DNA from: Dehalococcoidia bacterium
Lineage (GTDB): Bacteria; Chloroflexota; Dehalococcoidia; Lucifugimonadales; UBA2985
Length of the DNA: 64,000 nucleotides
Assembly: GCA_965263185.1 (NCBI GenBank)
Contig: OZ253588.1
Location: 311,611-375,610, forward strand
Reading direction: 5' to 3'
Shown here piece after piece: positions 6,278-15,100 of the stretch (position 1 is the first letter of the stretch; each line of letters starts with the position of its first letter). Below the pieces are notes generated by a model that was given only the letters and a program-made list of their open reading frames with translations, did no database searches and was not told the DNA's origin. The translations under genes were made by a program, and so were the position numbers.

Positions 6278-9128
<2,851 letters not shown>

Positions 9129-9150
9129 AAGCTGAGGCTAGGAATAAGCT

Positions 9151-9189
9151 AAGTCGGCGCCTGCTGTCCGGTAGGCGCCGACTTTTTTG
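9151..9189 (+). terminator. rho-independent terminator after gap
   Basis: aagtcggcgcctgc-tgtccg-gtaggcgccgactt stem followed by T-run. Confidence 0.85.
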
Positions 9190-9222
9190 TGTCAGCTAGG
9201 AGGCTCACGGAGCGGCCATTCA

Positions 9223-9256
9223 CGCTCGTGGTTAGCTTGTCGAACCATTTGAGCGG
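9223..9256 (+). repeat. single REP-like palindromic element (same family as 60376-60742)
   Basis: cgctcgtggttagcttgtcgaaccatttgagcgg, 31/34 identical to the unit core at 60378. Confidence 0.75.
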
Positions 9257-9296
9257 GAAGGACGGTCGGTTTAGCGTAAGCGGTCGCACTGCTGGT

Positions 9297-11636
9297 TCAC
9301 AAGGGGAACTCCATCAAAGATTTAGCAAACGGGATTGTAATGTTAAAAGTGTGCGGGTCTGAATCAGGAGCCAAAGCAACGATAATCATTCTCAAGGGAG
9401 CACGCGTCGCTCTCAATTCATCTCCCAGATCAGGCGGAACGGTGAAGGTAAATCGGAAACTTTCAGGAGCGTCAACCCATGAGTCCGCGAGAGTTGGGGC
9501 AGGGACGAGATTATAACGAGTTCTGATTTCATACACGTTGTCGTCAAACGACTCTGCGGTCTTCCAAACGGCAGTTAGCTTGAGCCCCGCAATGCTTACG
9601 CCTTCTTGAGGCTCTTCCCCGATGTACAGGACATCTTTAATGGAATAGCTGGGACCTAATTTCTCAAATCCAAAGCTGATCTTGTTATCGGCCCAAAGGA
9701 TTGGCGTTCCGGTTATGCGGAATTTCCCCGCTGAGATTCCTGAACCGGTCAAAGCATTGCCAAGCTCAGACACAGGCACATCAGAACCGAATATCTGTAT
9801 AGTTATTACTGGCGTTGGGCCGGGTGTCGGAGTGGACGTGGGCGTCGGGGTAGGTGTGGGTGCCAGCGTTGGGGGAGGAGTGGGTGTGGGGGTAGGGCTG
9901 GGTGTATATGTCGGTGTTGGAATGGGTGTGGGTATAGGAATAGGCGTTGGAGGAGGGGTAGGAGTATGAACGGGAATTGGAGGATGTGTTGGTATTAATA
10001 CAGGCACAGGAATGGGGTTGCTTGTTGCTGTTGGGGTTGGCAGAAGCGTTGGAACAGATGTAGGAATGGATGTTGGAGGGGTTAGAGCCTGCCCGGAACC
10101 GGGAGTAGGACTTGGAACAGGCTGAGAGCTTTGAGCAGGTCCATCTGAATTGGCGTATCCTAAGACTCCTATAACACCACCAACGCCAATAATAGATACA
10201 ATCAGTCCCACGATTGCCCATCTCAGCCCGCGGGCTTCAGTTTCAACTCTAGGCCCGTTGGCTTCAGTTTCAACTCTAGGCCCGTTGGCTTCAGTTTCAA
10301 CTCTAGGCCCATTGGCTTCAGTTTCAACTCTAGGCCCGTTGGCTTCAGTTTCAACTCTAGGCCCGTTGGCTTCAGTTTCAACTCTAGGCCCGTTGGCTTC
10401 AGTTTCAACTCTAGGCCCGTTGGCTTCAGCTTCAACTCTAGGCCCATTGGCTTCAGATTCAACTCTAGGCCGCACTAGAAATGTTACATACAGGTCGCCG
10501 GTTGAGCCTCCGTCAATTCCCGCATCGCCTGCTGCTGCAAGACGCATCGGAGTTCCGTCCTGTGTTCCAGGCGGAATCGTTATCTTCAACTTTCGATGCA
10601 GCCGCTCTCGACCTGAACTGTCACATTGAGGGCAGGAGCCTATCAGGAATTCTCCAACGCCGTTACACAGAGTACATCCCGCGCCGTTGCAATGGCTGCA
10701 CTTAACCGTGTGCCTCTTTGATCCACTGCATCTACTGCAAATCCCCAGCGGATATACGTCAACCTCCTTCTCTGCTCCAAACCTTGCTTCTTCAAAGGAC
10801 ACGCTAAGGGGGATCCGCAGGTCACCCCCGTTCTGAGGAGTCCTAATAGCGCCAGCGCCTCTGGAAGAGGCGTCGGCTGAGATCCTGGTATTTCCACCAG
10901 GAGGGTTACGGCGGTCGTACTGGGCGCGCTTCTGCGGGTCTTTGAGTGCGGCGTTTATCTCCAGAAGCTGCGCCGCACAGTCGCAAGCGGGGTCGCTGAG
11001 AATCGAGAGCTTGAGGATGAGGCGAGGCGGGGTTTCTTGAGATACCTTGTAGAACTCCCAGGTATCGCCGTTGGTCAGACAGGCGTACTCGGCGCTTTTC
11101 CTGCGGTTAGCGTACTTGAGCGCCTGGTCTCGGTGCTCGTCGTTCAGGTCCTGCCTCATACGCTTCGCCTCGATAAACGCGATGGGCTGCCCCCGCTGGC
11201 CCTGCGGGTGGAGGGCGTAGTCGACCCTTTGAGGTCTGTATCCGAACCCCAGGCTGTATTCCGTCGTGACGAGCTCTGGGTTGGCGGGATCCCAACCGAG
11301 GGCTTTGAGCAGTGGATCAATGAGCGCGTTGCGAGTGCGAGTCTCGTTCGCACTGATGGCGGCGCGGGCGCGCCCGATGTTCTCTTGAAGCTTTTTGATG
11401 ACGCTTACGAGATTGTCTACGTCAGAATTATCACACGTGGAGTGGGATTTCTCTTGCGCTTTCTTTTCACACTCCGAGCAGTGGGGGGCGCTTGCGGGCT
11501 TGTACACGACGTCGCATCCTCGGCACTTGTTAATACTACGTGTCCGCTGGGCCTCCCAGTGCAGACTACACAGATAGTGACCTCGCTGTATTTCCTTGGA
11601 GCAGGACTGTTCTCTGCAGGTGTTCGGTGTCGTCAT
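9297..11636 (-). CDS. chimeric membrane-anchored protein: Zn finger + HsdR-N-like PD-(D/E)xK nuclease + DnaJ Zn finger/CTD + tandem repeat + TM + Pro/Thr linker + C-terminal domain
   Basis: NE..TR..LIDPLL.ALGWD, RVDYAL, IEAK, QALKYA, LTNGDTW; LKDPQKRAQYDR; GDLRIPLSVSFEEA, four CxxC(xGxG) motifs, IPPG..DG...RL...GD....GDLYV; hydrophobic WAIVGLIVSIIGVGGVIGVLGY; (PT)n run. Confidence 0.85.
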   Translation of the reverse strand: MTTPNTCREQSCSKEIQRGHYLCSLHWEAQRTRSINKCRGCDVVYKPASAPHCSECEKKAQEKSHSTCDNSDVDNLVSVIKKLQENIGRARAAISANETRTRNALIDPLLKALGWDPANPELVTTEYSLGFGYRPQRVDYALHPQGQRGQPIAFIEAKRMRQDLNDEHRDQALKYANRRKSAEYACLTNGDTWEFYKVSQETPPRLILKLSILSDPACDCAAQLLEINAALKDPQKRAQYDRRNPPGGNTRISADASSRGAGAIRTPQNGGDLRIPLSVSFEEARFGAEKEVDVYPLGICSRCSGSKRHTVKCSHCNGAGCTLCNGVGEFLIGSCPQCDSSGRERLHRKLKITIPPGTQDGTPMRLAAAGDAGIDGGSTGDLYVTFLVRPRVESEANGPRVEAEANGPRVETEANGPRVETEANGPRVETEANGPRVETEANGPRVETEANGPRVETEANGPRVETEARGLRWAIVGLIVSIIGVGGVIGVLGYANSDGPAQSSQPVPSPTPGSGQALTPPTSIPTSVPTLLPTPTATSNPIPVPVLIPTHPPIPVHTPTPPPTPIPIPTPIPTPTYTPSPTPTPTPPPTLAPTPTPTPTSTPTPGPTPVITIQIFGSDVPVSELGNALTGSGISAGKFRITGTPILWADNKISFGFEKLGPSYSIKDVLYIGEEPQEGVSIAGLKLTAVWKTAESFDDNVYEIRTRYNLVPAPTLADSWVDAPESFRFTFTVPPDLGDELRATRAPLRMIIVALAPDSDPHTFNITIPFAKSLMEFPL
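10233..10471 (-). repeat. 27-bp coding tandem repeat, about 8.8 copies (RVETEANGP)
   Basis: unit ggcttcagtttcaactctaggcccgtt repeated almost perfectly. Confidence 0.95.
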
Positions 11637-11676
11637 AGCAGTCCGCGTTTGTAGTGAGAGTCAGGCATATGGGCGA

Positions 11677-11870
11677 GGTCTATCCCCGCGTGTGCGGGGG
11701 AACCTCGTAGACGTCGTCGCGGTAGCGGATTCTCATCGGTCTATCCCCGCGTGTGCAGGGGAACCCTTGGGCAGTAGCATAGCAGTCGAGATATCGGGAG
11801 TCTATCCCCGCGTGTGTGGGGGAACCCTCTTGCCGTTCTTTGTGGCTCTACCCTAATGGGTCTATCCCCG
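11677..11870 (-). CRISPR. orphan type I-E-like CRISPR mini-array: 3 full 28-bp repeats, 1 truncated repeat, 3 spacers (33, 33, 32 bp)
   Basis: repeats at 11677-11704, 11738-11765, 11799-11826 and partial 11859-11870; minus-strand consensus GGTTCCCCCGCACACGCGGGGATAGACC resembles the E. coli I-E repeat with a CCCCGC/GCGGGG stem; 60-61 bp period; spacers unique. Confidence 0.92.
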
Positions 11871-12090
11871 GGCTGGCCAGGGCCAGCGGCCTTACCCGCT
11901 ATCGGTGATGCTGCGGGTTCACATCGTCCAGGTATGCTACAATCTGAGCGACACTGGGATGGAAGACCTGTTGTATGAGGCGGAGTCGGTGCGGCGGTTC
12001 GTAGGGTTACGACTATCGGAGCCGATACCCGATGAGAGTACGATACTGCACTTCCGCCACCTGCTGGAAGAACATCAGCTGGGTCAGGTT
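11862..12090 (+). pseudogene. IS5-family transposase N-terminal fragment
   Basis: YPRAGQGQRPYPLSVMLRVHIVQVCYNLSD..MEDLLYE..SVRRFVGL...IPDESTILHFRHLLE; no DDE domain or inverted repeats left. Confidence 0.85.
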
Positions 12091-12148
12091 CACCCTCGAA
12101 GCTATGCCAGCCGCAATTATAGCACGGCGCGTACAAATCCAGGCCACT

Positions 12149-12177
12149 TTGCCCAGCCGTAGCTGCCTTGGTAGAAT
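12149..12177 (+). promoter_or_regulatory. sigma70-type promoter of the GT-C gene
   Basis: TTGCCC-N17-TAGAAT with extended TG; GTG start only 10 bp downstream (near leaderless). Confidence 0.5.
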
Positions 12178-12186
12178 AGCTTCATA

Positions 12187-15100
12187 GTGGAACATCCCAA
12201 CCCCAGCGATACCCCTACCCTCAACCCGCGCAAGTTGACCCTCGAGGCGCGCCGCCTGGCCGTTGTCTTCGCGCCCGCCCTCATCCTTGTTCTGGCCCTT
12301 GCCCTGCGGCTCTACGGCATAAATTGGGACCAAGGCGGCCTATTCCACCCCGACGAGCGGGCCATCCTGTTTCACGTCAACGACATGAGTTGGCCCCCAC
12401 TCTCCGACCTGGGCGTCCTCCTGGACGTGGACGAAAGCCCCCTCAACCCGCGTTGGTTCCCATACGGCAGCCTTCCCATGTACGCGGTGAAGGCCGCTCA
12501 GTCGCTTCTCTCCCCCATCGTCGACCTGGACTTTCACGGCCTGAGCTACCTGGGCAGGACACTCTCCGCCCTTGCCGACGTGGGCACAGTGCTGATGGTA
12601 TTCCTCCTTGCGTCCCGGCTCTACGGGCGCAGGGTGGGAATACTGGCCTCCCTGTTCGCCGCCATCGCGGTGATACACATTCAACTGAGCCACTTCTACA
12701 CCGTGGACACGTACCTGACATTCTTCATAGTCGCCTCCGTTTACTTCATGGTACGACTGATGCAAGACGGGCGGCCGAGGGACTCCGCCCTGGCCGGAGT
12801 CTTCATCGGGCTGGCGTTGGCCTCCAAGGTAAGCGTTGCGCCCCTGTTCCTGGCCTTCGTGCTGGCCCACGCCATCTACGCATTCTCAGGCCCCGGGGAG
12901 AGGCTCGCCCTGGCAAAGCCGTCCCGCCCCGCTCTCGCCAAGGTTGTCCGCAGCCTATTGCTGGGAGGCGCGGCCTGCCTGCTGGTCTTCTTCATCGCCA
13001 CGCCATACGCCTTCCTGGACTGGTCAAGGCCCACGCCCTGCGAGGTCCCCTACCCTTTCCTGGAGTTCCTCGACCGGAACTACTACGCCTGCGACCTGGG
13101 AGGCGAGTTCGCAATGGCGCGCGGCATATCGGGGCGACCGTACACCCAACAGTACATCGACACCGCGCCCTACTGGTACCACATCCGGCAGCTGGCCCTG
13201 TTCGGTCTGGGGCTTCCCCTAGGCATAGCCGCCTGGGCTTCCGTCCTGTTCACGGTCGCCCTGGCAGCAGCCCGCCGCCGCAAGGGCGACCTGCTGCTCC
13301 TGGCCTGGGTACTCCCCTACTTTCTGCTGACGGGCTACGTGGAGGTGAAGTTCCTGCGGTACATGCTGCCCCTGACCCCATTCCTGCTCATCATGGGGTC
13401 TCGTATGCTCCTCTGGGCGCACGACCGGGTATCGGAGCGGAGCATCCGGCATCTCCCACTGGCGCGTTGGGGCATTGGGTTCGTGATCGCAGCCACGGCG
13501 TTCTACAGCCTCGCCTTCGTCTCCATATACAGCCAGCCTCACACGGCGATGAGGGCGTCCGAGTGGATCAACGAGAACATCGCCAGAGGCTCCGTGATAC
13601 TCATGGAGCACTGGGAGGAGGGGCTGCCGAACACGCACAGCTACGTCAGAGGCTGCCGCGGCGTTCCGGACGACGCCAGGTCCTGCATGAAGATGTACGA
13701 CTCCGACAACGTGACGTACTACGGCGGCAAGGACAAGATGACGGTGGTGGCGGAGCAGCTTGCCGGGGCCGACTACCTGGTCTTCTTCAGCAACCGCCTC
13801 TACGGGAGCATCCCCCGGCTGCCGGAGAAGTACCCCCAGAGTGGCGAGTACTACCGCAGGCTCTTTGCCGGGGAGTTGGGGTACCGGCTGGAGCATTGGG
13901 AGACCGCCTACCCCCGGCTCATGGGAATCGCCTTCACGGACGATACCTTCACCCGTCCCGGCCTGCCGACGCTCGGAGAGCTGGGGCCGTTTCGACCGGC
14001 GCCCTTCACTGTAGACCTGGGCTACGCCGATGAGAGCTTCAGCGCCTACGACCACCCCAAGATCCTGATATTCAAGAACCTGGACCGCCTGAGCGCCTCT
14101 GAGATACTCCGGCTCCTCACGGAGGACCCACCGCAAGCGACCGAGGGCAAGAGCCTGCTGATGTCGGAGGCGACACTTACGGCCCAGCGCGAGGGCGGGA
14201 CCTGGAGCGCCATATTCGACCCCGGCAGCCTGGCCAACCGCTTCCCGGTAGTCGTGTGGCTCCTGTGGGCGCAGGCGCTTGCCCTGCTCGCCCTGCCGCT
14301 GAGCCTGGCTGTGTTCAAGGCCCTGCCGGACCGGGGCTACCTGCTGGCCAAGCCCCTTGGCATCCTTGCGACGGCCTACGTGGCCTGGCTCTTTGCAAGC
14401 CTGCACTGGATGCCATTCTCCAGAGGCTCAGTCCTTCTCGCGGCGCTGCTGCTCGCGTCGGTCTCCGCAATGGTCGTATACACGCGACGGGTGGACATAG
14501 TCGCCTTCTTCAGAGAGAACCTCCGCCTGGTGGCAGTGGGAGAGGCCGTCTTCATGGCCTCCTTTGCCGTATTCCTGCTGCTGAGAGCGGCCAACCCGGA
14601 CCTCTGGCACCCCTACACCGGCGGCGAAAAGCCAATGGAGATGGCCTACCTCAACGCCATAGTTCGCTCAACCTACATGCCCCCCTACGACCCCTGGTTT
14701 GCGGGAGGGTACATCAACTACTACTACTTTGGGCAGTTCATAGTCGCAAGCCTGGTCAAGGTATCCGGAATAACGACCGAGGTGGCATTCAACCTGGCCG
14801 TTCCCCTGTTCTTCGCCCTCACGACTTCGGCGGCCTTCTCCCTGGCGTACAACCTGTCGGAAGGCGCGCGGCGCGGCATGGGCATGGCCGGAGGCCGGAC
14901 GTGGGCCATAGTGGCCGGGCTTGCCGGCGCGTTCTTTGTCGCAGTCATGGGGAACCTGGACGGCGTAATCCAGCTTGGGCAGGGTCTCGCCAGGGCGATG
15001 CTTCAAGGGCAGCCCTTTGGCGAGTTCGATTTCTGGCGCAGCAGTCGGCTCATACCGCCCGGCGACCCGTCCGGGTACGAGATTACCGAGTTCCCCTTCT

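Follow-up and report, generated by a model that had tools for sequence, protein, structure and literature searches.

The 64,000-nucleotide window that we analyzed (the whole stretch of contig OZ253588.1 from position 311,611 to 375,610, from a Dehalococcoidia bacterium) contains on its minus strand a single open reading frame (ORF), 9297-11636, which begins with an ATG at 11636 and encodes 779 residues and a stop codon, with no internal stop. In the N-terminal half of the predicted protein, a zinc finger, a PD-(D/E)xK nuclease module of the HSDR_N type, a remnant of J-domain helices III-IV and the zinc finger of DnaJ with its first C-terminal domain (CTD-I) follow each other in this order. After CTD-I come a 9.1-copy repeat, one transmembrane (TM) helix, a Pro/Thr linker and a β-rich C-terminal domain (Table 1). 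An earlier note on this DNA had proposed the same domain order from the letters alone, and Pfam matches, alignments and the mapping of the repeat and the TM helix agree with it. It did not point out the strand, the recurrent family of membrane-tethered HSDR_N proteins in which this architecture belongs, the orphan mini-CRISPR, the IS5 fragment or the variability of the insertion site. Judged by these alignments, the gene is a chimera of two parents, in which residues 226-779 come from a membrane-anchored J-protein and residues 1-225 from a family of zinc-finger and HSDR_N proteins.

Table 1. Features of the chimeric gene and of its insertion site, in coordinates of the window.
Feature	Position	Strand	Evidence or remark
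Whole ORF, 779 residues	9297..11636	-	ATG at 11636; N-terminal zinc finger kept in P0023 from residue 5
Cys/His zinc finger, residues 7-56	11469..11618	-	C7, C12, H20, C23, H26, CxxC 38/41 and 53/56
HSDR_N-type PD-(D/E)xK nuclease module including leading helix, residues 70-225	10962..11429	-	Pfam, AF2, Foldseek
J-domain remnant (end of helix III and helix IV), residues 226-242	10911..10961	-	Alignment to P0003
Gly-rich linker, residues 243-269	10830..10910	-	
DnaJ zinc finger (4 x CxxC) within CTD-I, residues 270-391	10464..10829	-	Pfam DnaJ_C, NCBIfam DnaJ models
27-bp (9-residue, EANGPRVET-type) in-frame tandem repeat	10226..10471	-	Tandem Repeats Finder
Single TM helix, residues 471-494	10155..10226	-	Kyte-Doolittle window
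Pro/Thr-rich linker, residues 495-609	9810..10154	-	
C-terminal β-rich domain, presumably extracytoplasmic, residues 610-779	9300..9809	-	Invariant GTPILW motif (alignment)
3-kb insert holding gene, mini-CRISPR and IS5 fragment	9139..12148	.	blastn synteny, four congeners
Orphan mini-CRISPR, type I-E-like	11678..11886	- (gene's strand)	Repeats 11678-11704, 11739-11765, 11800-11826; degenerate fourth ~11860-11886
IS5-family transposase fragment, N-terminal DUF772 only	11881..12159	+	PF05598, E 1.5e-19, residues 1-67

The two parentages meet at a single residue boundary. A metagenomic protein of 656 residues (P0003) is identical to the fusion protein in 162 of 193 positions over residues 226-409 and in 151 of 170 over residues 610-779, giving an identity of 84-89% across the shared chassis. 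This similarity starts exactly at E226, and the part of P0003 that precedes this boundary contains zinc ribbons and a J-domain complete with HPD motif (PF00226, E 1e-25). The claim of the earlier note that a restriction-type nuclease has taken the place of a J-domain is thus borne out by a protein with the same chassis and an intact J-domain. Residues 69-225, on the other side of the boundary, are 58% identical to P0004, and this match stops exactly at L225. A protein of 403 residues (P0023) shares both the zinc finger and the nuclease module, with 64-65% identity, and continues with four TM-like segments. The searches behind these comparisons were a protein search with residues 1-400 against 5.8 billion proteins, which gave 19 matches, and an exhaustive HMMER search with residues 66-225, which gave 4603 relatives at E≤0.001, 36 of them also at E≤1e-30. 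In the AlphaFold2 (AF2) model, helices are placed with high confidence at residues 217-232 and 234-243, so that the helix which ends the nuclease crosses the join unbroken.

The chimera is recent and narrowly spread. Its own genome holds no gene resembling P0003 or P0023, only two soluble HSDR_N paralogues and, elsewhere, a normal DnaJ with HPD. Therefore the chimera was probably formed in another genome and then acquired whole.

Both Pfam families of the nuclease module are found above their cut-offs, HSDR_N at residues 124-201 (41.9 bits, cut-off 25.1) and HSDR_N_2 at residues 98-201 (28.0 bits, cut-off 25); since DnaJ_C also exceeds its cut-off, the domain mapping that the earlier note had suggested as a check comes out in its favor. 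A script check confirmed the catalytic set E98, D139, E156-A-K158 and Q171...Y175, together with C7, C12, H20, C23, H26, C38, C41, T101, T188 and G190. The second ribbon pair of the zinc finger is C53/C56 and not 52/55. Across 101 aligned relatives, E98, R102, D139, E156, A157, K158, Y175 and G190 are invariant and Q171 is conserved in at least 90%. The block means of the predicted local distance difference test (pLDDT) in the AF2 model are 92-98 across residues 71-240; over the N-terminal zinc finger, the residues of which are kept in P0023, pLDDT is only 52-66. In a Foldseek search with the nuclease model, the best match was an HsdR fragment (3h1t, E 2.3e-5, probability 1.00), followed by DrdV and BpuSI, and structure prediction thus agrees with the assignment to restriction-type nucleases. 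The invariant metal-binding set argues that the HSDR_N relatives are enzymes, and nuclease activity is predicted for this protein as well.

The start codon bears on the first zinc-binding module. The database gene call (P0002) begins at a GTG at residue 43/44, a start that would cut the second zinc ribbon. We favor the ATG at 11636, because P0023 shares the N-terminal zinc finger.

Of the J-domain, the alignment to P0003 leaves only the stretch EINAA...QKRAQYDRR, corresponding to helices III-IV and carrying a deletion of three residues relative to P0003; the HPD motif and helices I-II are gone. A Pfam scan of the protein gave no match to the J-domain family PF00226 even at E≤1. HPD and helix II are indispensable for the contact between a J-domain and Hsp70. 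The DnaJ part that follows is itself incomplete. DnaJ_C matches residues 274-391 (45.4 bits, cut-off 26.6) with profile positions 2-75 of 152 only, and the NCBIfam DnaJ models align solely with residues 262-390 (profile positions 106-252). The four CxxC pairs are present at 300/303, 313/316, 321/324 and 335/338. CTD-II and the dimerization region are absent, as the DnaJ_C match ends at profile position 75 and gives way at once to the repeat and the TM helix. Residues 226-391 are 48% identical to the DnaJ encoded by the same genome.

The repeat behind CTD-I has a unit of 27 bp, present in 9.1 copies with 96% matches. Its copy number differs between relatives, with about nine units here, two in P0003 and seven fewer in a variant from an RNA library, and short-read contigs break at it. 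Six promoters predicted inside the gene are this repeat itself. From R470 and R472 before the TM helix, an aspartate after it, and the cytoplasmic nature of the zinc-finger, nuclease and DnaJ domains, the N-terminus is predicted to lie inside. The AF2 model of the C-terminal domain is poor (mean pLDDT 53, all-β, from an alignment of 8 rows). A comparison of its fold with 48,161 chains by VIA-align gave a best Z-score of 6.5, to a dynactin chain, and one of 5.1 to a NEAT domain, values in a range that is common. The ESM Atlas yielded no usable match and we could assign the domain to no known family; we claim nothing for it beyond being β-rich. Rfam had no match at E≤0.1 over 9000-12300.

Contigs of other studies confirm the junction. 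Part of the 3.1-kb stretch is held by 20 sequencing-run rows from 9 studies, and our contig comparison took in 4 of 23 listed runs, with the likely source sample excluded. Two contigs from two other studies (X5 record 9, 10400-11166; X7 record 21, 10775-11166) bridge the junction at 10961/10962 with 0 differences and with more than 180 nt on either side. Contigs of X5 and X8 link the 5' end of the gene to the last repeat of the neighboring mini-array of clustered regularly interspaced short palindromic repeats (CRISPR), and this array to the IS5 fragment, again with 0 differences. A contig of run X19 (10937-11106) extends just 25 nt past the junction, below the minimum of 31 nt, and was not counted as bridging, nor were stretches of the gene that X19 does not cover taken as evidence; a joint 9249->11677 in X8 was set aside for having 25 letters on one side.

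A second allele, and the only other one in the database, exists in P0022, a protein of 265 residues from a 7.8-kb contig of another source, which has the identical junction. The earlier note had named a fusion found in no other genome and a junction spanned by no reads as the outcome that would speak against it; what we find is a second carrier of the junction and contigs of two studies that span it. Compared with the window, P0022 is a mosaic of three consecutive segments that are identical in 33 of 34, 40 of 66 and 103 of 107 positions; the middle one is identical in 63 of 69 positions to a membrane-type HSDR_N protein (P0024). The fusion has therefore persisted long enough to recombine with paralogues. 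Run X19, an RNA library, contains variant contigs that are about 90-96% identical, one of them without 189 nt, equal to seven repeat units; since DNA can occur in such libraries, these contigs are a hint of expression only. In metagenome contigs of the Joint Genome Institute (JGI), we found five loci, all of them ordinary DnaJ-like matches with 29-34% identity and none with the fusion.

The families behind the two parts have different distributions. The outer domain with the GTPILW motif occurs in 6 of 301 genomes of the order, namely that of the window and all five of a sister genus (g6), and in none of five sampled congeners. In P0003, P0021 and the five g6 genomes, this domain is the last element of a chain that begins with one or more zinc ribbons and an HPD-containing J-domain and then runs through a linker and a TM helix to a Pro/Thr linker. 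The HSDR_N module is carried mostly by metagenome-assembled genomes (MAGs) of Dehalococcoidia and Chloroflexota, with relatives at 45-53% identity also in Candidatus Synechococcus spongiarum, Poribacteria, Bryobacterales and a Bacteroidota MAG. This spread suggests exchange between phyla that share a habitat; the lineages outside Dehalococcoidia include, by their named records, known sponge symbionts. Among 96 HSDR_N relatives (alignment A1), Pfam finds a J-domain in 12, ankyrin repeats in 14, CAP domains in 4, PD40 in 2 and DnaJ_C in 1, the last being this protein alone, as the other 95 sequences have none. TM-like segments after the nuclease domain are present in 38 of the 96, the HPD motif in 12 and both in 10. 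A set of 80 species-representative loci includes 14 of the membrane type and 7 with HPD. The J-domain lies C-terminal to the nuclease in P0004, P0011 and P0015-19 and N-terminal to it in P0005 and P0007; the association is therefore recurrent and arose more than once. The present gene is one of a broader set of nuclease-like proteins with a membrane tether, for which we found no earlier description.

Several other architectures were seen within this set. The module is joined to long ankyrin arrays in 14 of the 96 relatives (P0010, P0012, P0045, P0057; L048, L084, L102). In large single-pass proteins (P0005, P0007, L043; P0015-P0019, L099), a J-domain and the HSDR_N module occur together with a TM helix, from which a Pro/Thr linker leads to an outside TolB-like PD40 propeller or CAP domain. 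The equivalent of E98 is replaced in P0015-P0019, and in P0017 also that of D139; some of the J-domain/HSDR_N single-pass members may thus be inactive. In the genome of the window, a soluble HSDR_N protein of about 330 residues (L002 964-1947, minus strand) has matches in 7 of 8 congeners searched, and this type of gene looks conserved rather than accessory.

With the nuclease domains of HsdR and of type IIG/IIL enzymes (3h1t; DrdV, 7lvv/7lo5; BpuSI, 3s1s), the protein has in common the PD-(D/E)xK fold and the E...D...ExK...QxxxY pattern. In contrast to these enzymes, it has a zinc finger in front and a membrane tether, but no SF2 translocase, methylase, specificity subunit or partner genes. 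No Pfam match to an SF2 helicase or to ResIII was found at E≤1, so that it is not a type I R subunit, and NCBIfam models of such subunits match residues 58-201 only, far under their cut-offs. Neither hsdM nor hsdS is adjacent, the neighbors being GAPDH, enolase, a methyltransferase and a DUF2298/PMT protein. A class A DnaJ shares with it the helix III-IV remnant, the Gly-rich stretch, the finger with four CxxC pairs and CTD-I, whereas helices I-II, HPD, CTD-II and the dimerization region are absent here and a TM helix and an outer domain are added. P0003 has the identical chassis from helix III to the C-terminus, and the g6 proteins have the TM helix, the Pro/Thr linker and the GTPILW domain in common with it, but these membrane J-proteins have zinc ribbons and a full J-domain with HPD in place of the zinc finger and the HSDR_N module. 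P0023, P0024, P0027, P0004 and P0011, among others, share the zinc-finger/HSDR_N module at 51-65% identity and then continue into a membrane anchor, either directly with two to four TM helices or with a J-domain followed by TM helices, but none of them has DnaJ_C. Escherichia coli DjlA is an inner-membrane J-protein with an N-terminal TM helix and a C-terminal J-domain, and has no nuclease, DnaJ zinc finger or outer domain; its likeness to the present protein lies in the idea of a membrane-anchored J-protein.

PADLOC-DB 2.0 gave no full-length match to a defense system, only local matches to nuclease domains (REase_I, E 6.4e-7; mad2, PDC-M54B and REase_MTase_IIG, E around 4e-4) and a match to PD-T4-6 (E 0.0035) which lies over the repeat and the Pro/Thr linker. 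The neighboring genes had no PADLOC defense match except for a generic methyltransferase matching mad2. A survey of PD-(D/E)xK proteins from 2012 groups HSDR_N and HSDR_N_2 with COG4748, COG2810 and COG0610 (PMC3424549); DnaJ is not mentioned in the portion of it available to us. Endonucleases of COG2810 ('predicted type IV restriction endonuclease') have been described as a group that is enriched in sponge symbionts or specific to them (PMC5649159, PMC6971038, PMC4453008), and the HSDR_N module is tied to this COG solely via the grouping in PMC3424549. The main text of a survey of J-domain architectures (PNAS 2023), as far as it was accessible, contains none of the terms 'nuclease', 'restriction', 'HSDR' and 'transmembrane'. 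We found no description of a family combining nuclease, J-domain and membrane anchor in the literature, where supplements, which lay outside our search, might list such architectures.

The gene has housekeeping neighbors: upstream lie aconitase, a small-molecule-type methyltransferase, enolase and GAPDH, while a DUF2298/PMT membrane protein is encoded downstream. It occupies a flexible site with debris of mobile DNA. In the closest congener (G007, GAPDH 97% identical), position 9138 of the window is joined to 12149 with about 113 bp between them. Another congener (G008) holds about 5 kb of other DNA at this site, with IS1595- and IS4-type transposases, a fusion of a DNA methylase and HNH, and an ORF resembling SLATT_1, a weak match of 24.6 bits that is below the cut-off of 26.3; in two more (G002, G003), the site measures about 1.6 kb and contains a pair of unrelated ORFs. 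The guanine-cytosine (GC) content is 0.57-0.58 in two 2-kb bins over the gene, compared to 0.63-0.65 in the flanks. The mini-CRISPR next to the gene has a period of 60-61 bp and its last repeat ends 41 nt before the ATG; its repeats had no chance matches in 100 shuffles. The main CRISPR array of the genome, about 1 Mb away, has 135 forward matches and, upstream, a cas2-like ORF and a leader. A leader common to both arrays was ruled out, as the repeats alone match. Among 50,697 phage records, none matched the mini-array region (11640-11900).

How the protein arose and what it does can be read in several ways. The structural reading is supported by the comparisons above, whereas the functional one is predicted from sequence and layout; nuclease activity, topology, substrate and benefit to the cell are features that we infer. 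With moderate confidence, we favor a DnaK-independent, membrane-tethered nuclease of the restriction type with a borrowed anchor. One parent would have been a P0003-like single-pass J-protein with zinc ribbons, J-domain, Gly-rich linker, zinc finger/CTD-I, TM helix, Pro/Thr linker and β-domain, and would in turn probably derive from an incomplete copy of the housekeeping dnaJ. The other would have been a P0023-like protein with zinc finger, HSDR_N PD-(D/E)xK domain and membrane anchor. An illegitimate join presumably placed the end of the last HSDR_N helix onto the middle of helix III of the J-domain, with loss of helices I-II and the HPD loop; because of this loss, the product should be unable to stimulate DnaK. 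The layout of the second parent would have been retained, with the zinc-finger and nuclease module in the cytoplasm at the inner face of the membrane, while the DnaJ zinc finger/CTD-I and the expandable nine-residue repeat would now act mainly as a spacer and the TM helix and outer domain as a borrowed anchor. As in the N-terminal relatives, the most likely role would be that of a solitary Mg-dependent restriction-type nuclease acting on DNA near the membrane, and its target, judged by the layout and the restriction ancestry of the domain, may be incoming foreign DNA.

A number of observations weigh against this favored reading. Over residues 270-390, the protein has only seven differences to P0003, more conservation than a pure spacer needs, though the time of divergence is short. 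The flanks of 13 membrane-type loci (53 ORFs) hold assorted metabolic families, with no shared partner, DNA methylase or Hsp70. After about residue 259, P0022 follows the +1 frame of the window, due either to a frameshift, and thus decay, or to a sequencing error. A codon comparison speaks in its favor, but within narrow limits: over the last 70 codons, 11 of the codons changed in the X19 variant are synonymous and 12 non-synonymous, a ratio that suggests constraint on the C-terminal domain, the count covering this domain only, being drawn from a partial list of differences and having the N-terminus of the variant outside it. A promoter scan found no sigma-70-like site between the mini-array and the ATG. 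The fusion occurs in none of the eight other genomes of the genus (nine searched including its own) and, given this narrow occurrence in genus and order, the gene is narrowly distributed and dispensable.

Some of these observations would fit a neutral or decaying by-product of recombination among mobile DNA, its frame open by chance, an explanation that we regard as rather unlikely. It would account for the single narrow lineage, the 3-kb insert with an IS5 fragment, an orphan CRISPR remnant and lower GC over the gene, the additional three-residue deletion in the J remnant, the shifted frame of P0022 and the missing promoter-like site. However, the 779-residue frame is unbroken and contigs from at least two further studies carry it unchanged, the second allele with the same junction has since recombined, so that the fusion persisted, all catalytic, zinc-binding and CxxC residues are in place, changes in the repeat keep the frame, variant contigs appear in an RNA library (even if DNA can be present there), and the codon comparison suggests constraint. 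The earlier note preferred a one-gene sensor-effector for defense against phage, in which infection or misfolded protein would be detected by the outer domain or at the client site of DnaJ and the nuclease would be activated in response. This we consider unlikely. In its favor, the catalytic set is intact and invariant family-wide, the succession of outside domain, TM helix and inside enzyme is the form of a transmembrane signaling protein, the variable site holds insertion sequence (IS) elements, the methylase-HNH fusion and the weak SLATT_1-like ORF in G008, the gene adjoins CRISPR repeats, the nuclease segment is mosaic between alleles, as in genes under diversifying pressure, and endonucleases of COG2810, to which the module may belong, are reported as enriched in sponge symbionts. 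Yet PADLOC recognizes only restriction nuclease domains (best E 6.4e-7) and no full-length system, the 13 flanks of family members lack defense-island content, one allele (P0022) is apparently frameshifted and the mini-array has no phage match. Moreover, the outer domain and the DnaJ part were inherited together from a group of proteins in which a J-domain is present throughout (P0003, P0021 and those of the five g6 genomes), and their native job is tied to the recruitment of DnaK.

A broader proposal, which we find distinctly improbable, is that proteins with the zinc-finger/HSDR_N module form a class of their own, not described before, of restriction-type nucleases that are anchored in the membrane and wired to Hsp70 and to extracytoplasmic domains (TolB-like propellers, CAP domains and the GTPILW domain). 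The J-domain would then let DnaK gate or reset the nuclease, and events at the envelope, for example the adsorption of a phage or contact with a host, would be signaled by the outside domain; the present gene, uncoupled from DnaK but still joined to the client-binding site of DnaJ and to an outside sensor, would be a constitutively armed transmembrane immune nuclease in a single polypeptide. That the protein still works as a co-chaperone of DnaK through its residual J-domain helices is very improbable: it does retain helix IV (QKRAQYDR) and the zinc finger/CTD-I, but PF00226 has no match at E≤1 and both HPD and helix II are absent, in agreement with the earlier note, which had denied it this role. 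We give practically no credence to an assembly artefact joining two genes, for which only the general risk of a metagenome-derived genome with repeats nearby could be cited, since it is refuted by the independent bridging contigs of two other studies and by the same junction in P0022, from a further source.

As a single gene, the favored tethered nuclease is a narrow and recent chimera of uncertain usefulness, and we therefore rate its interest lower than the earlier note did; the family behind it, in which membrane-tethered HSDR_N modules are joined time and again to J-domains and to domains of the host-interaction type, is a worthwhile lead. The gene offers a clean natural case of the birth of a new multidomain gene, with a datable join made helix to helix inside a J-domain, two identifiable parents and, in P0003, a close relative with intact J-domain for comparison. 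If the nuclease is active, P0003 and this protein would provide a direct test of what the J-domain contributes. Beyond this, the gene draws attention to a larger family, apparently not described so far, whose restriction-type nuclease domain has acquired a membrane tether again and again and has likewise been joined more than once to J-domains (on its N- or C-terminal side), to ankyrin repeats, to CAP domains or to propellers. The coupling of a nuclease to the recruitment of Hsp70 is, as far as literature searches show, not a described arrangement.

The insertion site provided some further observations. The space between GAPDH and the DUF2298 gene is a variable hot spot in the genus (window 9139-12148; L029 3586-8817; L031 8552-10186), and a 342-residue ORF at this site in G002 and G003 has a D...EAK-like motif and no Pfam match. 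The best-preserved repeat of the mini-CRISPR is the copy nearest the gene. The IS5 fragment, which separates the mini-array from the DUF2298 gene, has very high depth in each of the four compared runs, as expected for a multi-copy element. Directly after the stop codon, positions 9223-9257 are extremely deep in all runs and are also found in the insert of G008; with no match in Rfam, they look like a widespread small repeat element. The high depth at 9204-9307 and 11908-12115, considered as a sign of additional flanking CRISPR repeats, is in our reading explained by this repeat element and by the IS5 fragment.

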